Shown one piece after another: positions 1,830-52,084 of a stretch of 52,150 nucleotides of DNA; positions within the stretch are counted from its first letter, which is position 1; each line of letters begins with the position of its first letter. The notes below the pieces were generated by a model that had not been told where the DNA came from, searched no databases, and worked only from the letters and a program-made list of their open reading frames with translations. Source of the DNA: Chloroflexota bacterium (GTDB lineage: Bacteria; Chloroflexota; UBA11872; UBA12225; JAJDUF01); contig JAJDZR010000290.1 in NCBI GenBank assembly GCA_022824545.1, positions 1 through 52,150 of the forward strand, given 5' to 3'. The translations under genes were made by a program, and so were the position numbers.

Positions 1830-3266
1830 CTACCCGCCCAGGGTCGCCCAGTCCTTGTCCACCAGCGCTTGGAGCGTAGCCTGCGTATCGGTCAGCCAGG
1901 CCTTTACGCCGATCTCGCCCTTCATAATCGGGGAGATGTCGCGCCCAACGCGATTGATCTGGTTCCCCGAGGGGATGCCGGGATAGCGCCAGCCATATGG
2001 CGCCATCTCCACGAACCCCTTCATCTGCTCGTCGGTCTGCATGTAGTCCTGCAGGGTCTGAGACTCCAGCGCGCCCCGGCTCACCGGGATCGAGGTGGCC
2101 CGAATGCACGCCTGTGCTTGCGGCTCCGGTGAGTTCATCCACATACACACCAGCGCCGCGGCCTCCTGCCTCTTCGGATCGGTGCCGGGACCCTTGAAGA
2201 CGGCCATGTTGTGCCCGCCGTTCTGCGCGAACACCTCCCGCTTGCCGGGGTGTACCGGCGTATGGAGCACCCCGAAATCGGGCGCATTGTTCGCCCGCAG
2301 CGTCGGGATGCGGAACGGCCCCTGGTGCTCGAAGGCGATATTGTTCTTCGCCTCGCGGTACAACTCCCCGGCACCGTCCGGCGGGCTGAACCCACCCTTG
2401 AGGATGCTCTGCAGGAAGTCAATCGTCTCCACCGACTCCGGCCGGTCAATCGTGATCTTCCGCCCGTCATCGGTAATCACCCGCGCGCCCAGCGTGCCCA
2501 GGAACCAGAACCAGCGCGTCCAGCGGAACGCGAACGCGAACTCGATCCCGTCTTGCTGCTGCATTCTGGCCAGGTCTTCCTTGAAGCCGTCCCAATCGTA
2601 CTGCCCCTGGCCGCTGCCGTCCCACTCCGGGAATGGCACCCCGGCCTGCTGCAGCCGCCCCTTGTTGTAGATCAGGCCGGCGTTGTTCGTGTACACCGGC
2701 ATCCCGGCCAGCTTGCCTCCCCACATGCTGCTCTCGAGCATCCGCGGGAAGATGTCTGCTCGCTGCGGCCCCCAATCCTTGTTGGCCTTGAGCAGTTGAT
2801 CCAGGTCGGCTGTCGCGCCGCTGGCAAAGATGTTGACCGAGTCGAAGTAGCTCAGGAAGGCCACGTCCGGCGGCGTCCCACCCGCGGACATCGTCTTGTA
2901 CTTGTCCAGGTTTGTGCTGGCCCGGCCTCCCGACTCCAGGTCAACGCGGATGTTGAGCTCGTTTGTCTTGTTGAACTCCTCCAAGTTGGCAATCCGCGCC
3001 GCTCCCTCGGGATGCGTCTCCGGCAGGTTCGACAGGTAGAAGAGGAAGACCGGTGCCTCGGCTGCCTTCCCGGCTGCGCCCTGGGCACCCGTGGCGCCTT
3101 GGGCGCCCGTCTCACCCTTCACGCCAGCCGGCCCGGCCGGCCCGGCCGGCCCCGGCTGTGGCTGCCCGACGTACCTCACGGTCGGCTCGCCACACGCCGC
3201 CGCCAACAACCCACCGACTACCGCTGCACCTCCTGCAAGCGACTGCCTTCTACTGATGCGTGCCAT
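1830..3266 (-). CDS. ABC transporter substrate-binding lipoprotein, paralog with the same Tat/lipobox/collagen-like N-terminal cassette
   Basis: I trimmed the ORF-track frame 1830..3467 to the internal ATG at 3266 (residue 68). That ATG starts the same MARISRRQSLAGG...AAAC leader as the neighbour and has an AAGGAGGG RBS (rc of 3273-3280). The mature domain differs from the neighbour. Confidence 0.85.
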   Translation of the reverse strand: MARISRRQSLAGGAAVVGGLLAAACGEPTVRYVGQPQPGPAGPAGPAGVKGETGAQGATGAQGAAGKAAEAPVFLFYLSNLPETHPEGAARIANLEEFNKTNELNIRVDLESGGRASTNLDKYKTMSAGGTPPDVAFLSYFDSVNIFASGATADLDQLLKANKDWGPQRADIFPRMLESSMWGGKLAGMPVYTNNAGLIYNKGRLQQAGVPFPEWDGSGQGQYDWDGFKEDLARMQQQDGIEFAFAFRWTRWFWFLGTLGARVITDDGRKITIDRPESVETIDFLQSILKGGFSPPDGAGELYREAKNNIAFEHQGPFRIPTLRANNAPDFGVLHTPVHPGKREVFAQNGGHNMAVFKGPGTDPKRQEAAALVCMWMNSPEPQAQACIRATSIPVSRGALESQTLQDYMQTDEQMKGFVEMAPYGWRYPGIPSGNQINRVGRDISPIMKGEIGVKAWLTDTQATLQALVDKDWATLGG

Positions 3267-3369
3267 TGCGCTCCCTCCTTGTGATTGCGGTGGTCCCTGC
3301 ATTCCCTCCGTGGGTCGCAGGCGTTGCACCGACTCGCCACTGTCTGGTGACTCCACCGACAGCGCCCCA

Positions 3370-5972: not shown

Positions 5973-6022
5973 CGGGGGTGAAGGATGAGTAGGGGGCCGC
6001 GGCGTCGCCGTGGGCCGGCGCG

Positions 6023-6074
6023 TTCCCTCCCCTGTCGCAACGGGGGAGGGCGAGGGTGGGGGCCGGTGGGGGCC
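6023..6074 (+). repeat. Family A palindromic element (TTCCCTCCCC-loop-GGGGGAGGG-yTAGGGTGGGGGCCGG)
   Basis: The sequence is ttccctcccctgtcgcaacgggggagggcgagggtgggggccggtggggg. It lies between convergent stops. Confidence 0.7.
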
Positions 6075-9903: not shown

Positions 9904-9995
9904 GGCCCCCTATGGCCCTCCGCTGCGGCGGGGGGACGGCATGTTCCCTCCCCCGTCGCAACGGGGGAGGGTTAGGGTGGGGGCCGGGGGTTAGG
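9904..9995 (+). repeat. Composite element: family B (reverse) + family A, filling the whole convergent intergenic gap
   Basis: The sequence is ggccccctatggccctccgctgcggcggggggacgg-catg-ttccctcccccgtcgcaacgggggagggttagggtgggggccgggggttaggtc. Confidence 0.75.
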
Positions 9996-10475
9996 TCAGA
10001 CGCGCCCCTCATAACCCTCGTCCGCCGGTAGGTCCGGCTGCCCGGCGGCGGCCTTGGCCAGCTCGTCGCAGCGCTCGTTCTCCGGGTCGTTGGCGTGGCC
10101 CTTCACCCAGCGGAACGTAACGTCGTGCTCCGCGCAAAGCGTCAGCAGCCGTGCCCACAGGTCGGGGTTCTCGGCGCGGTCCCGCTTGTTGCGCTTCCAG
10201 CCGTTCGCCCGCCACTTCGCCGCCCAGCCCTGCTCCACGGCGTCAACCACGTACTTCGAGTCGCTCAAAAGCCTGACCCGACAGGGCTGCTTCAGCGCCT
10301 CCAGCGCCACTATCGCGGCCAATAGCTCCATGCGATTATTCGTCGTCAGCCGAAAGCCACCGGATAGCTCCTTCCGGCGGTTGCCGTGGATGAGCACGAT
10401 GCCGTAGCCCCCAGGCCCAGGATTGTCAAAACAGGCCCCGTCGGTGTAGATCACGACGTACTTGGTCGGAGTCAT
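9996..10475 (-). CDS. rnhA: Ribonuclease HI
   Basis: 159 aa. Motifs seen: [30 protein letters not shown]. It starts 9 nt after the stop of the upstream YfhO-like gene. Confidence 0.9.
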
Positions 10476-10484
10476 ATTCGCTCG

Positions 10485-13136
10485 TTAGGAGTGTAGTCGT
10501 CGCCGCCGGCCGAGCAGCCCGGCCAGCACGAGGGCCGCGCCGAGCACGCCCCATGCGGCACCGCTCACGGTCCGGCCGGTGGCGTAGCCGGGTGGATCAT
10601 AGCTGAAGACAACCTCATGCCGGCCGGCCGGCACGGCCACCGCCCGGACGAGATAGTTCGCACGCAGTACGGGCGTGGGTGCGCCATCGAGCGTCGCCGT
10701 CCAGCCGGGAAACCAGGCGTCGGCGAGCACCAGCCAGGCATCCGTTGCCGCCTCGACCGCAATCGCTATCCGCTGCGGCCGGTCGCTCGTCAGCCGCGCC
10801 AAGCTAGGAGTGCTTTGATTGCTGGCTGGCCGGGAGCGTGTTCCCTCCCCTGGAGCTTGCTCCGGGGGAGGGCTAGGGAGGGGGCCGGATGCTACCCCCT
10901 CCAACACCACAATCCGACGCGGGTTGAAACTCGGCGCGGCGACCGCTTCCCAGGCAGCCTCCGCCGAGCCGACGGTACGCGCGGCCGGGACGAGGTAGGC
11001 CCGCGGCTGCGCGCGGCTATTGACCCACACCTCCATCGAGCCGGCGTTCGGGCCGCTATCCAGGGGACGCCAACGATGCATGTCCAGGTGCGGCTTCTTC
11101 AGCGCGTCGCGGGAGAGCACCAGATACCGGACGGCCAGCGCCTCCAGCAGTCCTTGTGGCAGCTGCCCCGGCGCAAACTGGGGCTGCGGGAGCCGTACCG
11201 GCACCGCCCGCTCCGAGTGTATCGCGGCGGACAGCACCGCCTGGCGCACCGACAGTAAGTTTTCGTAGCCAGCGAGCTGCGGCACACGCGCAGCCAGCCC
11301 CCAGTTCGGCGTCACGCCGGCGCGCTGCAACGCAAATGTGGCGGCCGGCGCATTGCCCTGCGCCGCGAGCGTGGCGAGGTTCAGCTCATACGCCGCCGCC
11401 CGCAGCTTCCAGCCCACCACGCGGGCAGTGCCCTCACGGAGACCGGGCAGCGCTGCAACCTGTGCCAACTCATCAACGCCGGCACTGGACGGGACCGTGG
11501 GAAAACGCGACCACATGAACAGCACCAGCGGCACGCTGACGACGGCCAGCATGACGACCGGCTGTCCGCGTCGTGCCCGCGTCCGCTGCGACCATAACCA
11601 CCACCACACCACCGCCACGAGACCGGCCAGCGGACCTAGTACCGCAAGCTGGCGGGGGTCGAGGGCGCGTTGTGCTCCGGTCAGATAGGCAGCAAACGTG
11701 GTCGCATAACGCTCGGCGCTGAAGGTGCGGGTCGGATCGTCGGCCAGGCGTTGGGCGAGCGGCTGTCCGACCTGCTCCAGCAGGATGTCACGTCCGAATA
11801 CGAGCGCGCCGGTGCCGACGAGATGCCCGACCACGATCAGGACCACTGCCAGCAGTGCCAGCCGCGACCACCAGCCGCGGCCGCGGGAGGAAACCGCCTG
11901 TGCTGCCTTCCCGGACGCACGCCACGCATCGTAGCCGTCCGCAGCGAGCAGCGCAGCGGCGAACACCCAGAGAATGAGCCAGCGCGTCGGGTCGCGGAAG
12001 AGCGCAAAGCCGGGCACCTTGAGCAGCAGCGGGTAGAGCGGTGTGAAGCTACCGCAGGCCAAGATGAGGCCAGCACCGCCGAATACCAGCAGCAAGACCG
12101 TCCGGCCAGGAAAATCGCTCGTTCGCCAGCGCCACACCGCATAGCCGGCGAGCACCAGCGGCACGAGGCCGACATAGGCAACCCACGTCGGCGAGAGCAC
12201 CGGCAGCACCTCCAACCCCGGCAGCACCAGCCCGGCGGCCAGCGCCCATGGCGCGGCGGAGCCGACCGCCGCCGCCACGACCTCCAACCCCTGCCCACGC
12301 GGCGAGAGCGCGGCCACTTCGAGCGTGGGCACGATACGGATCGCTGCCAGCGGCAGGGCCGCCAATCCCGCGGCCAGCAAAGCCACCGGCGCTATCCATA
12401 TGCGCCACACCGCCACTCGCGGCTCGTGGCTGGTGGCCGCTGACCGCTGGCCGCTGACCACTGACCACTGGACTGCGGCCGTCGTGACTACGGCGTAGGC
12501 TCCAGCGCCAACGCACACCAGCACGACCAACTGTGGGTGCCCGGAGAGGGTGATGAGACCGACCGCGGCTGCGGCAAGCAGCCCGCGGAGTAAGAGCGGC
12601 CGCCAGGCGACTCGGTCCGCGTTTGCGGCGGCGCGGCGCAGGCCATCCGCGCACCAGCAGAGGAATGGCAGCGCCCAGAACACCGTCCCGAAGTTCAGGA
12701 GCGCGGCGCCGCCGGCCACAGTCCCACTCAGTTGATAGATAGCGCCGGCGATCCCGGCAGCGGCCGGGGACCGGCCCCACGACCGCGCCAACCCGTAGGT
12801 CGCAATGCCCGCCGCCGCCGCGTGTAATGCGACGGATACCCAATAGCCGCGCGGACCGGGTGCGGCGAGCAGCGCCAACCAGGTGGGCGGGTAGAGCCAG
12901 CCGTACTCGGTAAAGGCCAGCGGGAAGCCGGTGAGCAAGTGCGGCGTCCACAGCCACAGTTCACCCGTCCGTAGCCCATCGGCCAGCCAGAGGTGGGCCG
13001 GGAGATAGGCCAGGAAGACGTCGGCATTGACCGAGAGCCGGTCGAAAAGCAGTAGCGGCGCGTAGGTGATGATGGCCAGTCCCACAAAGCCGCCAGCCGC
13101 CAGCACACCCGGTCGAATCGGGATGGCACTACTCAC
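10485..13136 (-). CDS. YfhO-like polytopic membrane glycosyltransferase (GT-C type)
   Basis: I trimmed the ORF-track frame 10485..13466 to GTG 13136 (VSSAIPIRPG...). That GTG overlaps the upstream stop as GTGA. The protein has many TM helices and the YfhO-type C-terminal signature (FPGWTATLDG...ANYLVRAVAVPAGRHEVVFSYDPPGY). It contains an in-frame repeat element at 10840-10888. Confidence 0.7.
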   Translation of the reverse strand: MSSAIPIRPGVLAAGGFVGLAIITYAPLLLFDRLSVNADVFLAYLPAHLWLADGLRTGELWLWTPHLLTGFPLAFTEYGWLYPPTWLALLAAPGPRGYWVSVALHAAAAGIATYGLARSWGRSPAAAGIAGAIYQLSGTVAGGAALLNFGTVFWALPFLCWCADGLRRAAANADRVAWRPLLLRGLLAAAAVGLITLSGHPQLVVLVCVGAGAYAVVTTAAVQWSVVSGQRSAATSHEPRVAVWRIWIAPVALLAAGLAALPLAAIRIVPTLEVAALSPRGQGLEVVAAAVGSAAPWALAAGLVLPGLEVLPVLSPTWVAYVGLVPLVLAGYAVWRWRTSDFPGRTVLLLVFGGAGLILACGSFTPLYPLLLKVPGFALFRDPTRWLILWVFAAALLAADGYDAWRASGKAAQAVSSRGRGWWSRLALLAVVLIVVGHLVGTGALVFGRDILLEQVGQPLAQRLADDPTRTFSAERYATTFAAYLTGAQRALDPRQLAVLGPLAGLVAVVWWWLWSQRTRARRGQPVVMLAVVSVPLVLFMWSRFPTVPSSAGVDELAQVAALPGLREGTARVVGWKLRAAAYELNLATLAAQGNAPAATFALQRAGVTPNWGLAARVPQLAGYENLLSVRQAVLSAAIHSERAVPVRLPQPQFAPGQLPQGLLEALAVRYLVLSRDALKKPHLDMHRWRPLDSGPNAGSMEVWVNSRAQPRAYLVPAARTVGSAEAAWEAVAAPSFNPRRIVVLEGVASGPLPSPPPEQAPGEGTRSRPASNQSTPSLARLTSDRPQRIAIAVEAATDAWLVLADAWFPGWTATLDGAPTPVLRANYLVRAVAVPAGRHEVVFSYDPPGYATGRTVSGAAWGVLGAALVLAGLLGRRRRLHS
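10840..10888 (+). repeat. Family A element inside the YfhO-like CDS (in frame)
   Basis: The sequence is gttccctcccctggagcttgctccgggggagggctagggagggggccgg. It is translated as SGPLPSPPPEQAPGEGT. Confidence 0.65.
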
Positions 13137-15037
13137 AGTACGTACTCGATCTGCGCTTCCAACGGAGCGGCGAGCAGCCGCCGCGGGAATTCGAGGTGGC
13201 GCACGTTGCCATGCACCGCCGGCCGGGCGTCTGCCAGCGCGGCCGGCTCGGTGTGCAGCGCCCTCGCCGCTGCCGGTACTGCATAGAGCAGGCGGCGCAA
13301 CGGCGCCTCTACCGAGATCACCTCCCGCACTCGCACGGCGCCGTTCTCGACGGAGACTTGGCGCCGCACGGTCACGCCTGCGAGCGGCTCGCCGTCGCGC
13401 CGTGCCGGCCGGACCGTGCCTTGCACCCCGTCCGGTAGCAGCGTCGGCGCGGCGTCGAGCGCCCAATGCGTTGCATAGACCTCATCCCAAGCGTGCCAAA
13501 GGGGGCGTAGCCAGCCGCGCCAGAGCGTGCGGACCGCCGCGCGAAACGCTCTCTGTCGCCGGCGGATGCGGACAACGAAGAGCCATTGGCGTAGCTCCCG
13601 GCCGGGATGATTGGCCGCCAGGAACGCCCGCACGGCCGCCCGCCTCCGGCGCCGCCGCGGCCAGCACGTCAGATTGCCGGGGCTGATGGGCGCCTCCCGC
13701 GCCGGCGCAATCATGTCCTCCCAGCCGCCGGACGTGTGACCGGCGTAGAGCAAGCTCCCACCGCCGACACCACCGCCATACAGCACATTGGCCGGCCGCT
13801 TGCGTGTCCGCAGCAGCGCCACCGTCTCGGCCGTCTGAAGACGCACCAGTCCAGCCTCCGCAAACACACGCACCCGCCGCGACTCCCCTTCCCTGAAGGG
13901 AAGGGGCCGGGGGTTAGGTCCAACGCCCCCGTCAGAGCCGGGCGGCGCCAAGATCAGTGCAGCCAGCCACGCGGCATCGGCAGCGTGGAAGTCCGGGCAG
14001 ATGAAATCGTCGCGGCCGGCCGGCGCCCGACAGGCCAGCACCATATTCGCTAGATGCTGCCGCCAGACGGCATATGCCTGCTCCGCCAGCGTCTTCAGGG
14101 AGTTGTCCGCAAACTGTGCCGCGCCGTGCAGCAGCGCGTACATGTCGAGCGGGTGACTCCCGACTTCATGCGGGCCGGCCCAGAACCAGCGCTTACCCTC
14201 CAGCGCCGCGCATTTTGTCCCGGTGGGCGTATACGTCGCTGCCAGGAAATCCAGGCCGCGGCGGAGGGCTGCCAGCGTTGGCCCGCAGACCGTGCCTGCA
14301 TCTTCACCGAGCATCGCCAGGGCGTGCCACAGATAGGTCAGTATCCGCGCCTGGTAGTAGACTGAAACGTCCGCCGCGCCGGGGTGGAGACCGAAACGGT
14401 CCGGCTCCGGGTGATAGGGAAATGATCCATCGGTGTGCTGCTCCGTGAGGGACCGCTCGATACTCGCGTGTACGGCGGCAAACCAGGTCGGCTCGCCCAG
14501 CGCACGCGCCGCGGTCGCCAGGCCCATCGCCCCCCACAGCCGTTGATTGGTGACCTCTTTCGTCACCGCCGCGTCGGCGAGGTAGGTGGTCGCATTGCGG
14601 CGCAGTGCCTCTACCAAAAGCTCCCGCAGCGTAGCGTCGAGCATATCGTCAGCATGGAGCAGCAAGGTGCCTAAGCAACGGGCACACTCGCCGCTGTCAA
14701 TGACGTTGTTGGAGCAGTTATAGGGGTCCAGACGCCCCGGCGCGAAAATCCACGCGCCGTGCTCCGGGTCACGCACCAGGCGTGCGACCACGCGCCGAGC
14801 GCGCCGCTGCGCCCGCTCCCAATAGCGGCCCTGGCCGGTGATCCGCTGGAGCGCCAAGTCAACGACGATGGAAGTGGCGGTGCGCGCCGTGTGCTCGACC
14901 CCGTGGACAGCACAGCGCGTCTCGCCACTAGGTACCGTCCGCTGCACCCAGTAATCGGAGACGCACGCCAGCACCGGCCGGTAGGGGTATCCCTTGTGGG
15001 TGCCCTGTTCAGCACGGTCGGACGCTGGCGCGGTCAC
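13133..15037 (-). CDS. Hypothetical protein, 634 aa, no confidently recognised family (helical N-terminal half, beta-rich C-terminal half)
   Basis: The frame is long and open with a protein-like composition. The start is ambiguous: GTG 15037 (GTGA overlap with the upstream stop), ATG 15070, or GTG 14974 downstream of the repeat at 14981-15005. It contains an in-frame repeat element at 13885-13920. Confidence 0.55.
   Translation of the reverse strand: MTAPASDRAEQGTHKGYPYRPVLACVSDYWVQRTVPSGETRCAVHGVEHTARTATSIVVDLALQRITGQGRYWERAQRRARRVVARLVRDPEHGAWIFAPGRLDPYNCSNNVIDSGECARCLGTLLLHADDMLDATLRELLVEALRRNATTYLADAAVTKEVTNQRLWGAMGLATAARALGEPTWFAAVHASIERSLTEQHTDGSFPYHPEPDRFGLHPGAADVSVYYQARILTYLWHALAMLGEDAGTVCGPTLAALRRGLDFLAATYTPTGTKCAALEGKRWFWAGPHEVGSHPLDMYALLHGAAQFADNSLKTLAEQAYAVWRQHLANMVLACRAPAGRDDFICPDFHAADAAWLAALILAPPGSDGGVGPNPRPLPFREGESRRVRVFAEAGLVRLQTAETVALLRTRKRPANVLYGGGVGGGSLLYAGHTSGGWEDMIAPAREAPISPGNLTCWPRRRRRRAAVRAFLAANHPGRELRQWLFVVRIRRRQRAFRAAVRTLWRGWLRPLWHAWDEVYATHWALDAAPTLLPDGVQGTVRPARRDGEPLAGVTVRRQVSVENGAVRVREVISVEAPLRRLLYAVPAAARALHTEPAALADARPAVHGNVRHLEFPRRLLAAPLEAQIEYVL
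13885..13920 (+). repeat. Family A-like element inside the 634-aa CDS (in frame)
   Basis: The sequence is ccccttccctgaagggaaggggccgggggttaggtc. It shares the ggggccgggggttaggtc tail with 9978-9995. It is translated as GPNPRPLPFREG. Confidence 0.6.
14981..15005 (+). repeat. Family E element GTAGGGGTATCCCTTGTGGGTGCCC
   Basis: It lies in the 5' end region of the 634-aa gene and bears on the choice of start codon. Confidence 0.7.
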
Positions 15038-16410
15038 TTGCGGTACACGGCCAATTGGAGTTTGCTCCACGGTTCGAGCAGCCGGTGTAATGGCCGAGTG
15101 AGGCTGTAGAGCGTCTGGACCGGATACTGCGCGTAGGCGAGCGGCGGACGCAGTGCTCGTACCCGATGCCGGGCCTCGTCCTCCGGCGGCAGCGGGAAAT
15201 GGCTGGCTCCACGCTCGCGGCGGAAGCCCACGTTGGCCAGCCCCCGCATCACGTCGCGCGGGGCCAACGGCACAAACGGACCGAGCGATGGGTCGGTCCC
15301 CAGGACGTATTGCACGTCGCGTCGGCCCAGGAGCCAGCGGATCGGTTGCATCAACGCGAAGTACGAGTGCCGACTGATGTGTGCGAGGATCAAGGCCCCG
15401 CCCGGCCGCAGCACGCGATGGGCCTCGGTGAGCAGCCGCAGCCGCTCCGGTGGGGGCAGATTTTCGAGGCGGAAGATGCAGGTCACCACGTCCACGCTGG
15501 CATCCGGCAGGTCAATCCGTCCATCGTAGTGGTGCGATTGGGCCGGGCGCGGCAATCGGCGCTGGGTAAACTGGGCGGTCTGCTCGGTCAGCTCGATGAA
15601 GTGAACGTCGGCATCGGGCGCTGCCGGCATCAGCTGCTCCAGGTACAGACCGGTGCATGGCAGCAGATCGAGCCACACACGCGGATTCTCCATACGTAGG
15701 GCTTCCTGCCCGAACCGGGTCACGACCTCGAACTCCGAGCGGATCGGCTTATTGTATTTCGGTCCGGCGCGAATGCGGGCTTGCTGATAGTCGGCGACCT
15801 GAGCCAGGGTCCAGTCGCGCGGATTGGGTGACGATGGCAGGCGTGGGCGGGGATGATACTGCTCCCAGTGCGTCATATGCGAGGGATCGCGCCGCGCCGG
15901 TGCCCCCGGCTGCTCGGCCGGGTACCCGAAGAGCACCGTGGCCAACACCTCTACGTCGTCGGGCAGGCGCAGGACCGCGTGCAGCTTGGCGCGGTCATGG
16001 ATGGTGGCCTGCCAAAAGCCGCCGAGACCGAGCGAATGGCCCTGGAGCAGCATGTTCATGATGGACGCCGACGCGCCCTGAATATGGGCAAAGCTGCCCT
16101 CGGAGAACCGCGTGTTGTAGCAGACGAAGATCAGCACTGGCGCCTGGGTGGCGAACGGCACGGCATCTTCGAGCTGCTGCCGCGTCGCCTCGTTGGTGAC
16201 AACGACGAAATCCCACAGCTGCATGTTGCACGCGGACGGCGCCCAGAGGGCCGCTTCGAGGAGTTCGTTGATGAGTTCTTCCCGCACCGGCCGGTCCGGC
16301 AACCAGCTCCGGATTGTGCGCCGGGTGCGGATGGCATCGCCGACGCTCATGGGCGGCCCATTGGCCCGTGCGGTAGTCTCCGGTGTCACGGATTCGACTG
16401 TGGCACTCAT
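15034..16410 (-). CDS. Fusion protein: nitroreductase-fold flavoprotein domain + class I SAM-dependent methyltransferase domain
   Basis: The N-terminal half has RTIRSW, WAPSACNMQLWDF and LFGYP, typical of the nitroreductase family. The C-terminal half has VVTCIFRLENL and LRPGGALILAH, typical of the methyltransferase fold. I chose the start at ATG 16410 (MSATVES) because GAAAGAAGGG lies 9 nt upstream. The ORF track begins at 16446. Confidence 0.75.
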   Translation of the reverse strand: MSATVESVTPETTARANGPPMSVGDAIRTRRTIRSWLPDRPVREELINELLEAALWAPSACNMQLWDFVVVTNEATRQQLEDAVPFATQAPVLIFVCYNTRFSEGSFAHIQGASASIMNMLLQGHSLGLGGFWQATIHDRAKLHAVLRLPDDVEVLATVLFGYPAEQPGAPARRDPSHMTHWEQYHPRPRLPSSPNPRDWTLAQVADYQQARIRAGPKYNKPIRSEFEVVTRFGQEALRMENPRVWLDLLPCTGLYLEQLMPAAPDADVHFIELTEQTAQFTQRRLPRPAQSHHYDGRIDLPDASVDVVTCIFRLENLPPPERLRLLTEAHRVLRPGGALILAHISRHSYFALMQPIRWLLGRRDVQYVLGTDPSLGPFVPLAPRDVMRGLANVGFRRERGASHFPLPPEDEARHRVRALRPPLAYAQYPVQTLYSLTRPLHRLLEPWSKLQLAVYRK

Positions 16411-16603: not shown

Positions 16604-16701
16604 CCGGCCCCCTCCCTAACCCCTCACAGGGGTAGTTTTTTGTGTGGGCCTATGTACCTCCCCGCGTCCCCCTGCTGCAGCGGGGGGACCATAGGGGGGC
16701 C
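16604..16701. repeat. Mosaic: family A tail (reverse) + family C (CACAGGGGTAGTTTTTTGTG) + family B
   Basis: The sequence is ccggccccctccctaacccc / cacaggggtagttttttgtg (16625-16644) / cgcgtccccctgctgcagcggggggaccataggggggcc. Confidence 0.7.
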
Positions 16702-18396: not shown

Positions 18397-19271
18397 GAGC
18401 GTCCTTCTTCTACTCCAGACTGGACGAGCGGCTTCGTGCCCCGCATATGGACTGCGCCGCCGCATTCGCCATTGGCCCACACCACTTTCGGATCGGTGTA
18501 GCGCACCGGATGGGTGAGCGTGATGTCCACGAAGCCGGCATCGCCAAACCACTCCCGGACCTCGCGCCAGGTATGGACATGGTTCCAACGCGGGGAGTAA
18601 GCATCGTAGGCATCGAACTGCATCGCTGCGAGGTCGTACTGGGCGGAGGTCTGGGTCCCATCGTAAACCTTGAGCAAGTGTTGGAGGTAGAAAACGAGCT
18701 CCGAGTTCTTGATAATCAGATACTTGCACACATGGTAGCGCTGCTCTTCAGGGAGTTGGCGGAGCACCAGCCGCAGTGCATCCGTCAACAGGTGCTTGGC
18801 ACGGTTGGTCCATTCGTAGACCATGACGTACAGCACGCCACCTGGCCGCACCAGCGGCACCAGGCGCTCGAAGCTGCGCAGCGTATTCGGTGTATGATGC
18901 AGCACCCCCCAGGCCATAACGAAATCGAATGACTCAGGCGGTAGCGGCAGGCTACCAACGTTGGCCTGGACGACATGCCCCGCAGCGTATGGCTCTAGCA
19001 CCCGACGGGTAGCGTGACACCCGGCCGCCGTGAGGTCGAGCGCCGTCACGTGGGCACCTAGCTCGGCGAGCGCGTAGCTCCATCGTCCGGTACCGCAGCC
19101 GACGTCAAGGGCATCCTTGCCGGGAAACCATGTCGCCGGCAGCTGCACATCGCCAAGGAGCTGAGTGACGAGGCCTGGCTGGATATCGAGCAGGCGCGAT
19201 TCGCGGGCGCGGCGGTGCTCATAGTCGAACACGCGCTGCACGTGACGCTCCCCGCTTGTCAACGTAGACAT
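18393..19271 (-). CDS. Class I SAM-dependent methyltransferase (copy 1)
   Basis: 292 aa. Motif I is DVGCGTGRWSYALAELG and the post-I region is VTALDL. An AAGGA RBS is present. Confidence 0.85.
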   Translation of the reverse strand: MSTLTSGERHVQRVFDYEHRRARESRLLDIQPGLVTQLLGDVQLPATWFPGKDALDVGCGTGRWSYALAELGAHVTALDLTAAGCHATRRVLEPYAAGHVVQANVGSLPLPPESFDFVMAWGVLHHTPNTLRSFERLVPLVRPGGVLYVMVYEWTNRAKHLLTDALRLVLRQLPEEQRYHVCKYLIIKNSELVFYLQHLLKVYDGTQTSAQYDLAAMQFDAYDAYSPRWNHVHTWREVREWFGDAGFVDITLTHPVRYTDPKVVWANGECGGAVHMRGTKPLVQSGVEEGRS

Positions 19272-19292: not shown

Positions 19293-20171
19293 TCACACGT
19301 TGCCGACATGGGCGATATGCGGTTCGGCGGTCATCGTGCCGCGCATATGGACCACGCCGCCACAATCGCCCTTGACCCACACCACTCTCGGATCGGTATA
19401 GCGCACTGGATGGGTAAGCGTGATGTCCACGAAGCCGGCATCGCTAAACCACTCCCGGACCTCGTGCTGGGTGTGGACGTGGTTCCAGCGCGGGGAGTAA
19501 GCATCGTAGGCATCGAACTGCATCGCTGCGAGGTCGTAATGGGCGGTAGCCTTGGTTCCATTGTAGACTTTGAGCCAAGGGTGGAGGCAGACGGCGAGCC
19601 ACGAGTTCTTGATGATGAGATACTTGCATAGGCGGTAGCGCTGCTCGTCAGAAAACTGACGCAGCACCAGCCGCAGCGCATCCGTCAATAGATGCCTAGC
19701 GCGGTTGGTCCATTCGTAGACCATGACGTACAGCACGCCACCCGGTCGCACCAGCGGCACCAGCCGCTCGAAGCTATGCCGAGTGTTTGGTGTATGGTGC
19801 AGCACTCCCCAAGCCATGACGAAGTCGAATGACTCAGGCGGGAGTGGCAGGCTCCCAACACTGGCTTGGACGACGTGCCCCGCAGCGTATGGCTCCAGCA
19901 CCCGACGGGTAGCGCGACACCCGGCCGCCGTGAGGTCGAGCGCTGTCACGCGGGTACCTAGCTCGGCGAGCGCGTAGCTCCATCGTCCGGTACCGCAGCC
20001 GACGTCAAGGGCATCTTTGCCGGGAAACCATGTCGCGGGTAGCTGCACGTCGTCGAGGAACTGAGTGATAAGGTGTGGCTGGATGTCGAGCAGGCGCGAT
20101 TCGCGGGCACGGCGGTGCTCGTAGTCGAACACGCGCTGCGTGTGGTGCTCACCGCTGGTCAGCGTAGACAT
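19293..20171 (-). CDS. Class I SAM-dependent methyltransferase (copy 2, tandem paralog)
   Basis: It aligns without gaps to copy 1 over about 272 aa, with about 37 substitutions by eye. I set the start at ATG 20171 (MSTLTSGE), matching copy 1. The ATG at 20180 lies inside the RBS. The C-terminal 13 aa derive from a glycosyltransferase 5' fragment. Confidence 0.8.
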   Translation of the reverse strand: MSTLTSGEHHTQRVFDYEHRRARESRLLDIQPHLITQFLDDVQLPATWFPGKDALDVGCGTGRWSYALAELGTRVTALDLTAAGCRATRRVLEPYAAGHVVQASVGSLPLPPESFDFVMAWGVLHHTPNTRHSFERLVPLVRPGGVLYVMVYEWTNRARHLLTDALRLVLRQFSDEQRYRLCKYLIIKNSWLAVCLHPWLKVYNGTKATAHYDLAAMQFDAYDAYSPRWNHVHTQHEVREWFSDAGFVDITLTHPVRYTDPRVVWVKGDCGGVVHMRGTMTAEPHIAHVGNV

Positions 20172-24706: not shown

Positions 24707-24730
24707 GTAGGGGCGCAACATGTTGCACCC
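24707..24730. repeat. Family F related copy (GTAGGGGCGCAACATGTTGCACCC)
   Basis: It shares the GGCGCAACATGTTGC core with 21128-21157. Confidence 0.6.
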
Positions 24731-24764
24731 GTCCCCCCGTCCCGACGGGGGGACCATAGGGGGC
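24731..24764. repeat. Family B element
   Basis: The sequence is gtccccccgtcccgacggggggaccatagggggc. Confidence 0.7.
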
Positions 24765-24848
24765 ACTCACCCACCCCGACACATCCCCCATCCTGTCCAT
24801 CCATGTGAATACCTACCCCCGTCAGGGTGGGGGTGAGGTCAAGCACGC

Positions 24849-28497: not shown

Positions 28498-28788
28498 ATG
28501 GAGCCTGCTGCACTGCTCAAGAAGCACCGCGAGGCGATCCTCCGTCTCGCGGCCCGCCACGGCGCCTCGAACGTGCGCGTATTCGGCTCCGTCGCCCGCG
28601 GCGAGGCCGATGAGGCAAGCGACATTGATTTCCTTGTTGATCTAGCACCGGACCGCAGCCTCCTCGATCTTGGTGGCCTCTGGTGGGACTTGAACGACCT
28701 CTTGGGCGGCAAGGCAGATGTCGTCACGGAACAGGGCCTCCGGGATCACATCCGCGAACAGGTCTTGCAAGAGGCGGTTATGCTGTGA
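28498..28788 (+). CDS. mntA: Nucleotidyltransferase-fold antitoxin (MntA-type)
   Basis: 96 aa. It carries the [18 protein letters not shown] (GSx10DxD) minimal nucleotidyltransferase motif. Confidence 0.8.
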
Positions 28789-29154: not shown

Positions 29155-29445
29155 GTGCAGCCCTCGAAGTTGGTGCGCGAGAAACGCCACGACATTCTGC
29201 GGATAGCGGCCCGCCACGGCGCCTCGAACGTGCGCGTATTCGGCTCCGTCGCCCGCGGCGAGGCCGGCCCCGGCAGCGACCTCGATCTCCTGGTCTCATT
29301 GGCCCCCGGGCGCAGCCTGCTGGATCACGTAGCCCTCTGGCAGGACCTGGAAGACCTGCTGCACTGCAAGGTGGATGTGGTCAGTGAGCAGGCCCTGCAC
29401 TGGTACATCCGCGAGCGAGTGCTGGAGGAGGCAACGCCCCTGTAA
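29155..29445 (+). CDS. Second MntA-type nucleotidyltransferase, no cognate HepT
   Basis: GTG 29155 lies in the ORF-track frame 28921..29445. The motif is [18 protein letters not shown]. It shares a 60-nt perfect identity tract with mntA. Confidence 0.75.
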   Translation: MQPSKLVREKRHDILRIAARHGASNVRVFGSVARGEAGPGSDLDLLVSLAPGRSLLDHVALWQDLEDLLHCKVDVVSEQALHWYIRERVLEEATPL

Positions 29446-34498: not shown

Positions 34499-34568
34499 CC
34501 CCCGTCCCCCCGTCGCAACGGGGGGGCCATAGGGGGGCGAACTCCTCACAAGGGTAGCTTTTTCGTGG
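34499..34568. repeat. Family B + family C modules
   Basis: The sequence is cccccgtccccccgtcgcaacgggggggccataggggggcg followed by cacaagggtagctttttcgtg (34547-34567). Confidence 0.7.
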
Positions 34569-39613: not shown

Positions 39614-39638
39614 ACGCAGCGTCCCCAGCATTCCCGCG

Positions 39639-39722
39639 CCCCCCACCCCAGCCCTCCCCCGTCGGGACGGGGAAGGGAATATACCGTCCCCCCGCCGCAG
39701 CGGGGGGACCATAGGGGGGCGG
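39639..39722 (-). repeat. Composite A+B element, reverse orientation relative to 9904-9995
   Basis: Its reverse complement aligns module by module with 9904-9988. Confidence 0.75.
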
Positions 39723-40912: not shown

Positions 40913-40955
40913 CGTCCCCGTCCCCCCGTCGGGACGGGGGGACCATAGGGGGGCC
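40913..40955. repeat. Family B element
   Basis: The sequence is cgtccccgtccccccgtcgggacggggggaccataggggggcc. It lies immediately downstream of the mutL stop. Confidence 0.7.
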
Positions 40956-52048: not shown

Positions 52049-52084
52049 GCCCCCCTGTGGTCCCCCCCGGCGGCGGGGGGGCGG
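52049..52084. repeat. Family B element (reverse orientation)
   Basis: The sequence is gcccccctgtggtcccccccggcggcgggggggcgg. Confidence 0.55.

Follow-up and report, generated by a model that had tools for sequence, protein, structure and literature searches.

An in-frame triplex-motif-type repeat in a predicted surface loop of a YfhO-like membrane protein from a Chloroflexota bacterium

Dispersed G/C-rich repeats of the BoxC, PIT and triplex-motif (TM) kind have been known since the 1990s, and we know of no function and no means of spreading that has been established for them. Here we describe a repeat of this kind at positions 10840–10888 of contig JAJDZR010000290.1 (assembly GCA_022824545.1) from a Chloroflexota bacterium, where it lies in frame within a gene for a YfhO-like membrane protein. 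The whole stretch of DNA that was analysed, 52,150 nucleotides (nt) with a G+C content of 0.66, is called the window below.

The triplex motif of Escherichia coli, TM(ECO) or TMECO, forms a stable triplex in vitro, and 3610 copies were counted in 262 proteobacterial genomes (Holder et al. 2015, PMC4666352; its introduction refers to an earlier account of BoxC, PIT and triplex motifs by Hoyne & Maher 2000). The PIT elements of E. coli had no promoter or terminator activity, the copies of strain MG1655 were “always located intergenically” and were associated with local genomic instability, and the authors speculated that this instability is adaptive (PMC4666352). The same E. coli elements, intergenic ones only, were interpreted by Kaplan et al. 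2016 (PMC5100583) as a switch between G-quadruplex, hairpin and duplex. The colonisation of genes in frame by small palindromes is also known. In-frame fusions of the type of the Rickettsia palindromic elements (RPEs) have been reviewed (2024, PMC10969869), and Di Nocera et al. 2013 (PMC3733652) described repetitive extragenic palindromes (REPs) inside genes of several species, often replication or repair genes, with Thauera, Opitutus terrae and Xanthomonas named. The latter report contradicts an earlier note on the window, whose author knew of no equivalent description for GC-rich genomes of this kind. A literature search on triplex-motif terms returned no report of coding copies. New in comparison with this literature are the Chloroflexota stem variant of the triplex motif, its in-frame coding copies here and in other phyla, a protein loop that was hit by several repeat types, and a hairpin that is more conserved than the surrounding codons.

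The in-gene copy (49 nt) reads gtt-ccctcccc-t-ggagc-tt-gctcc-gggggaggg-cta-gggaggggg-ccgg on the plus strand of the window, i.e. its G-rich strand is antisense to the gene, and it represents the loop subfamily TGGAGCTTGCTCC. It is composed of a pyrimidine C-stem, CCCTCCCC(T) (10843–10851), a loop 1, GGAGC-TT-GCTCC, which lengthens the hairpin (10852–10863), a purine G-stem 1, GGGGGAGGG (10864–10872), a loop 2, CTA, which is the variable site of the family (10873–10875), and a purine G-stem 2, GGGAGGGGG (10876–10884). The C-stem pairs with G-stem 1, without mismatches over the 7-nt stems of the triplex scan, and folding yielded a 13-bp hairpin on the plus strand. G-stem 2 follows at a distance of 3 nt and mirrors G-stem 1 exactly, as expected of a third strand; the two G-stems jointly provide four G-tracts. 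The earlier note had reported a palindrome with a G-rich tail. Both are real, but that description was incomplete, in that a tail mirroring the right arm makes the element a motif of the BoxC/PIT/TM type (PMC4666352), the type also read as a G-quadruplex–hairpin switch (PMC5100583).

The in-gene copy thus has all parts of an intrastrand triplex motif, i.e. a pyrimidine stem, a loop, a Watson-Crick purine stem, and a second purine stem that mirrors the first, in which G faces G and the A of the first stem is faced by A or T. The triplex finder allows loops of 1–6 nt; the 3-nt loop 2 fits this limit, whereas loop 1 of the in-gene copy (12–16 nt, compared with ~8 nt in intergenic copies) exceeds it. 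The window stems (CCCTCCCCC / GGGGGAGGG / GGGWGGGGG) differ from those of TMECO (CCCTCNCCC / GGGNGAGGG / GGGNGAGGG) at one or two positions, and the strict TMECO pattern, CCCTCNCCC N3-6 GGGNGAGGG N3 GGGNGAGGG, had no match in the window. The third stem of the TMECO consensus repeats the second one, whereas the window stems are asymmetric, so that their third stem is recognisable as a mirror and not as a direct repeat. A mirror fits the requirement of an antiparallel third strand and is not required by a G-quadruplex. The window motifs share with the elements HPG1 and HPG2 (PMC5100583) four short-loop G-tracts behind a complementary C-rich segment, the conservation across bacteria and the position near the 3′-ends of genes, but differ from them in the mirrored 5-3 / 3-5 arrangement of the G-tracts, which a G-quadruplex does not need. 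The repeat could also fold as a hairpin or as a G-quadruplex, and any of the three structures may form in vivo.

Two intergenic copies in the window, both between convergent genes and on the plus strand, were compared with the in-gene copy, i.e. 6022–6066 (loop GTCGCAAC) and 9943–9987. All three have in common the left arm (G)TTCCCTCCCC, the right arm GGGGGAGGG and the tail NNAGGGNGGGGGCCGG, and the loop alone differs, as the earlier note had stated. The window was tested for an arm pattern, CCCTCCCC-N4-24-GGGGAGGG, and a tail pattern, in comparison with dinucleotide-preserving shuffles. Each of the patterns had four matches (for the tail, three exact ones and one with three mismatches), and each had none in the shuffles. 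A scan with the mirror rule detected 10 triplex motifs in the 52-kb window versus 0.03 per shuffle. The stretch 10840–10888 is therefore a genuine member of a dispersed family of G/C-rich class II intrastrand triplex motifs of the BoxC/PIT/TM kind.

These counts also bear on the idea that the similarity is a product of chance or of convergence of Pro/Gly-rich coding sequence in a genome of 66% G+C. Although the encoded peptide is of low complexity and the base composition would be permissive, we consider this explanation extremely unlikely in view of the shuffles, of an intergenic copy with identical stem and loop in a related genome, of orthologs that have another sequence at the site and lack the peptide, and of amino-acid changes that fall on the variable nucleotides of the family.

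The intergenic twin in the related genome (L130, 6564–6603) also defines the boundaries of the element at about 10840 and 10888, because the similarity starts and stops about there. All copies read begin with 5′-(G/A)TTCCC and end with GGGGGCCGG-3′. [quoted passage not shown] No inverted repeats besides the central hairpin were found at the ends of the element. Inspection by eye of the flanks of the two copies with identical stem and loop revealed no direct repeat, and nesting or deletions at the gene site could have erased any duplication.

For the distribution beyond the window, a 29-base family pattern was searched in one genome per species, and at least 120 DNA stretches matched. They span Alpha-, Beta-, Gamma- and Deltaproteobacteria, Nitrospirae, Planctomycetes, Acidobacteria, Bacteroidetes, Chloroflexota and others; judged by these exact matches across many phyla, the repeat is not lineage-specific. 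The free position of the mirror stem was occupied by T in 77, A in 49, C in 1 and G in 1 of the 128 distinct copies among the matches listed, compared with a background A+T of 39%, i.e. the A/T-only rule at the mirrored position is kept in 126 of these 128 copies from other bacteria. In the same copies, loop 2 is mostly pyrimidine-pyrimidine followed by A. A reading of this bias as stop codons on the other strand (TT, TC, CT) was rejected, because a plain pyrimidine preference, CC included, explains the counts. A search of the whole window against all Rfam families at gathering thresholds gave no match, and the exact 30-nt stem and loop of the in-gene subfamily had no match in the JGI metagenome collection.

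The host gene (10485–13160, minus strand) encodes a YfhO-like membrane protein of about 891 aa; its start codon is uncertain, because the open reading frame (ORF) stays open up to 13466. The repeat lies within this ORF (10485–13466) and is translated as GPLPSPPPEQAPGEGT, and the frame continues into the YfhO C-terminal part, in accordance with the earlier note. The Pfam YfhO family (PF09586) matches downstream of the repeat (ORF residues 892–968; 32.9 bits versus a cut-off of 28.5, E 3e-8). Among 26 close orthologs with 72–92% identity, 24 have a precomputed PF09586 hit, and 23 are near full length (863–970 aa, 75–92% identity); one partial ortholog bears the label Dehalococcoidia.

We considered whether the repeat might mark a break in the gene, which would then be either a pseudogene or a pair of ORFs whose spacer contains the repeat. 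Our own hmmscan search, which found a strong YfhO match for the C-terminal part only, would be in line with a broken gene. On the other hand, the reading frame is unbroken in the window and in ten orthologs read as DNA, full-length orthologs carry PF09586, and one confidently predicted fold spans the site. In addition, the ratios of non-synonymous to synonymous substitution rates (dN/dS) between the window gene and six orthologs are 0.15–0.22 upstream of the repeat and 0.10–0.30 over 103 codons downstream of it. These values, well below 1 on both flanks, indicate that the frame is read through the repeat. A broken gene is therefore very improbable, and the earlier claim of an intact gene is borne out.

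The position of the repeat in the protein was predicted with an AlphaFold2 model built on 41 sequences (mean predicted local distance difference test, pLDDT, 81.8; predicted template modelling score, pTM, 0.86). The membrane domain of the model is helical, its C-terminal domain is rich in beta strands (between residues 677 and 854), and a final transmembrane helix (857–888) forms the end. Residues 755–786 have no secondary structure, and residues 762–783 have a pLDDT <50. This segment connects the beta strands 750–754 and 787–794 of the C-terminal domain and precedes the last transmembrane helix. Since the repeat encodes residues 758–774, it is predicted to form part of a disordered surface loop, which is outside of the membrane domain and probably extracytoplasmic. 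The model thus supports a tolerated position, as the earlier note had proposed.

The alignment of the orthologous proteins is hypervariable between the anchors ..VVLEGV and ..ARLTSDRPQR, which are 40 to 75 residues apart. In the window, this repeat-filled linker extends approximately from 10800 to 10905 on the minus strand (residues about 753–787 of the 891-aa protein). The DNA at the site, read for ten orthologs, falls into three types of alleles. In the first type, the motif is antisense to the gene (window, L006, L007, L128, L129 and L130), and in the second type it has the sense orientation (L003, gttccctcccc-tggtagctcaatcc-ggggagag-ccagggtgggggcc). The third type lacks the motif and has a ATTCCCGC/GCGGGAAT hairpin (L001, L002, L004 and L005), in the form gATTCCCGC-N4-GCGGGAATgac followed by a (G/A)GTAGGGCCGGGG-type tail, which is multiplied in L004; its translation is DSR(F/E)(R/S)GND... 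Distant homologs with 30–37% identity have an unrelated short linker at the position of the repeat.

Traces of nesting were found in alleles of the first type. L129 has kept “gat tcc” directly before the motif, L006 has kept “gcgggagtagggccgggg” after it, and L007 equals L006 minus 39 nt (13 codons). These remnants and the 39-nt loss indicate that the antisense motif lies inside of a ATTCCCGC element and was trimmed later. An in-situ inversion between the sense and the antisense motif was considered and rejected, because the two alleles belong to different loop subfamilies, each of which also occurs intergenically (the window loop at L130 6564–6603, the L003 loop at L007 17574–17614). In a neighbour-joining tree of the flanking protein sequence, calculated without support values, the allele types are interleaved, which fits recombination or repeated turnover. 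These comparisons of sequences reveal a hotspot for repeats, with nesting of elements and three or more classes of alleles, and not the single, simple insertion that the earlier note had envisaged.

Small repeats in frame are not confined to this loop. In the upstream gene (13133–15070, minus strand), which has no Pfam hit, there is another triplex-type repeat at 13885–13917, CCCCTTCCC-TGA-AGGGAAGGGG-CC-GGGGGTTAG on the plus strand, which is antisense and in frame and encodes GPNPRPLPFREGES. This site is also hypervariable among the orthologs, and L005 has two ATTCCCGC hairpins there, translated as FPRKRES and DSRFRGNDGG. Moreover, three long-stem palindromes of 57 nt (19 codons) were found as in-frame insertions with clean boundaries in the upstream gene, each in one genome only (ETTPDAHNQMGIGGARLARP in L004, LTTPEAHAGARCGALQARH and MNDDPKLPPSTLGTGSLGA in L003). 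Two of the three belong to one family and differ by compensatory changes in the stem. In the gene for aspartyl-tRNA synthetase (AspRS), L003 (16778–16797) and L128 (16677–16696) have a 33-nt ATTCCCGC-GCAC-GCGGGAAT hairpin in frame (VDSRARGNDE..), in the same peptide frame as the hairpin at the YfhO site, and L001 is devoid of it. The YfhO-like gene of L004 carries a further ATTCCCGC hairpin at a second site (11070–11089). The ATTCCCGC-N-GCGGGAAT hairpin was also met at L091 4210–4229, an unrelated locus, and at L008 3056–3075, in a Chloroflexota metagenome-assembled genome (MAG); both loci had been fetched for other reasons, and the hairpin may not be confined to close relatives.

In unrelated bacteria, in-frame cases (L048, L100, L106, L026, L088 and L118) occur among the 129 motif hits listed in the pan-bacterial scan. 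In-frame copies of the triplex motif separate the two domains of ThiC and lie inside the 3′-5′ exonuclease domain of DNA polymerase I (PolA) and inside the catalytic domain of an E2 acyltransferase, each time with Pfam domains on both sides. The motif is also in frame in a PMT_2-type membrane protein, with a Pfam match N-terminal to the motif only, and likewise, in two genomes, in the C-terminal extension of an ORF that, by eye, is probably a UvrB.

The analogy to the Rickettsia elements drawn in the earlier note was thus right in substance, in that in-frame colonisation recurs in this lineage, with filled and empty alleles for the 57-nt insertions in the upstream gene and the 33-nt hairpin in AspRS. 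Like RPEs, as described in PMC10969869, palindromic repeats are found in frame in unrelated genes and add a peptide at tolerated surface positions. RPEs, however, are units of ~100–150 bp, specific for Rickettsia, with AT-rich genomes and a conserved peptide module, whereas the element described here has 49 nt, is G/C-rich and belongs to a mostly intergenic family. By description, without a sequence comparison, it shares the tolerated insertion in frame and neither the unit size nor the peptide module, i.e. it works like an RPE, which does not make it one. The likeness to REPs tagged with GTAG or CGTC (PMC3733652) consists in short units or dimers of 20–40 bp in frame in ORFs and in a preference for sites between convergent or unidirectional genes. 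Unlike these, no copy read has a GTAG or CGTC beside the palindrome, and a mirror G-rich tail is present instead. With BoxC, PIT and TM(ECO), the repeat shares dispersed, highly conserved copies, inverted pairs of two motif types, local instability and the lack of a linked transposase in the literature. The E. coli copies of TMECO and BoxC, from a proteobacterium, are reported as intergenic only, whereas the window copies at 10840–10888 and 13885–13917 are in frame in genes of a Chloroflexota bacterium.

The variability at the YfhO site raises the question of whether the repeat-filled loop is an adaptive diversity module, i.e. whether instability serves for variation in the exposed loop of an enzyme of cell-envelope glycans, e.g. 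under pressure from phages or a host. Four or more allele classes at one site in orthologs that are 75–92% identical, with 40–75 residues between the anchors, would suit such a role, as would the hypervariable site in the neighbouring upstream gene. The gene also lies in a surface-polysaccharide-type cluster with a Wzm/Wzt-like ATP-binding cassette (ABC) transporter, glycosyltransferases and methyltransferases, and adaptive instability has been speculated on by Holder et al. (PMC4666352). However, similar inserts occur in the cytoplasmic housekeeping enzymes AspRS, ThiC, PolA and E2, where surface diversification makes no sense, the peptide core PPPEQAPGEG is invariant within the motif-bearing alleles, and the loop, by prediction, is disordered and distant from the conserved core. 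We regard an adaptive module as improbable.

We compared the nucleotide sequences of the six motif-bearing alleles. Of 2550 aligned columns, 25.5% vary, whereas the 30-nt hairpin core, ccctcccccggagcaagctccaggggaggg, has a single variable site. Only 0.04% of the 30-nt segments of the gene are as conserved, i.e. the core is the most conserved stretch. The substitutions are found at the A/T position of the mirror stem (Leu to His), in loop 2 (TAG, TAA or TCG on the gene strand, encoding Ser, Asn or Arg) and otherwise at the ends of the element. These same positions are the variable ones of the family in all bacteria. An invariant core with changes at family-variable positions points to constraint or homogenisation at the level of DNA or RNA and not to constraint on the peptide. 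The element thus appears to be maintained as nucleic acid and not for the peptide that it encodes.

Such maintenance might mean that the element has a function of its own within the gene and is conserved by selection for it, either as an mRNA hairpin, by pacing translation or by stabilising a processed 3′-end, or as a DNA triplex or G-quadruplex in replication or transcription. The conservation of the core, including synonymous sites, would be expected in this case, and hairpins of 12–13 bp are predicted on both strands. Seven of the eight intergenic motif copies in the window are found directly 3′ of a stop codon, four of them between convergent genes, a position typical of REP-like roles at the RNA level. 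The G-rich strand is on the plus strand in 9 of the 10 window motifs (binomial p about 0.02); the GC skew of the window is slightly negative (−0.04), and the minus strand holds more of the coding sequence. Against a function of this kind, there are orthologs that work although this site holds the reversed motif or a hairpin unrelated to it, which indicates that no orientation-specific role in the YfhO-like gene is required. The PIT elements of E. coli are without promoter or terminator activity (PMC4666352), and the folding z-scores are weak (see below). A function of the element within the gene is therefore unlikely, albeit marginally less so than a role of the loop in surface diversity.

Taken together, we favour, as the probable explanation, that a dispersed triplex-motif repeat landed in an older hairpin repeat in a surface loop, was tolerated in frame, and that the site has been remodelled since. 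The triplex-type repeats of this lineage lie mostly just 3′ of genes, and one copy would have arrived, by whatever process spreads the family, inside of an older ATTCCCGC/GCGGGAAT hairpin that the YfhO-like protein already had in its surface loop. The element is devoid of stop codons in most of its frames, and the peptide, rich in Pro, Gly and Ser, would be flexible. With open frames and a disordered loop, alleles that differ by multiples of three could be tolerated and translated. Instability associated with the motif, or gene conversion with dispersed copies, would keep remodelling the site, resulting in in-frame insertions and deletions. Selection would filter only for an open frame, and the peptide would presumably be functionally neutral.

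Several observations weigh against this explanation. None of the 26 close orthologs has an empty site; each has repeat-derived sequence, and a clean indel between filled and empty alleles with the boundaries of the repeat, as expected from the earlier note, was not found among them. Since the motif has no empty-site allele, we infer the insertion event itself. The element length of 49 nt is not divisible by three, and the compensation that the first event must have required is now beyond reconstruction. Translation through the repeat is deduced from the dN/dS values of its flanks. The neighbour-joining tree with the interleaved allele types has no support values. The near-invariant hairpin could instead reflect a recent recombination of this segment between strains. 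Compared with shuffles, the RNA folding energies of the repeat are unremarkable (z about −1.2 to −1.4), since shuffled sequences that combine C-rich and G-rich parts fold well in any case. A triplex has not been detected in vivo even in E. coli (PMC4666352). Lastly, the sample of the lineage that was examined comprises about 0.2 Mb.

The remaining motifs of the window include a second family, termed family B, which was found by the triplex scan (TCCCCCC-loop-GGGGGGA-CCAT-AGGGGGG at 39682–39720, plus strand). Further copies are at 16662–16700, 24727–24765, 34500–34538 and 40916–40954, and one more match, which resembles family B more loosely, lies on the minus strand (52049–52081) and was found by the triplex scan only. 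The copy at 9943–9987 is paired with an inverted, degenerate family-B-like copy at 9906–9942. At 9906–9987 and at 39636–39720, the two motif families form close inverted pairs, one antisense and one sense, resulting in a composite of ~80 nt. Such composites are also present at L008 4446–4524 and L082 2647–2726, and the copies from the window and from a Chloroflexota MAG are 86–90% identical (78% in one of four pairings). The inverted pairs of a type A and a type B motif in E. coli (PMC4666352) are akin to them. An extension, GGGGCCGGGGGTTAGGTC.., past the triplex part is common to 9974–10016 and 13897–13939 (81% identity; at 13897 it overlaps the third stem), which suggests a longer modular unit. 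The hairpin CCCTCCCCC-ATGCTGACGCAC-AGGGGAGGG at 1772–1801, between two minus-strand genes, has the arms of the family without the mirror G-rich tail. The window also has three long direct repeats, 18434–18733 / 19334–19633, 28523–28775 / 29180–29432 and 1329–1560 / 3049–3280, with 72–86% identity at distances of 657–1720 nt; the first pair lies in adjacent ORFs of ~300 codons, which are taken as candidate tandem paralogs.

The locus shows that translation can run in frame through a stem variant of the triplex motif and that the same loop has received at least three different small repeats. Triplex-motif repeats are hereby documented as a source of in-frame length variation of proteins. For annotation, an origin from repeats should be recognised where Pro/Gly-rich segments like PSPPP..GEG or DSRxRGND lie in bacterial proteins that are otherwise conserved. 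No part of the gene that is constrained by the protein evolves as slowly as the hairpin core, and this difference offers a handle on the question of selection at the nucleic-acid level. A bolder proposal, which is conceivable but doubtful at present, is that the triplex-motif repeats are an actively spreading cross-phylum element that inserts preferably into existing hairpin repeats and owes its integrity to selection or conversion at the level of the nucleic acid, even in essential genes (YfhO, ThiC, PolA, E2 and possibly UvrB). If it were true, the in-frame copies would be a natural experiment that separates constraint on the peptide from constraint on DNA or RNA, and a conserved factor, encoded by the host or by the element, that recognises the 36–49 nt structure would be implied.

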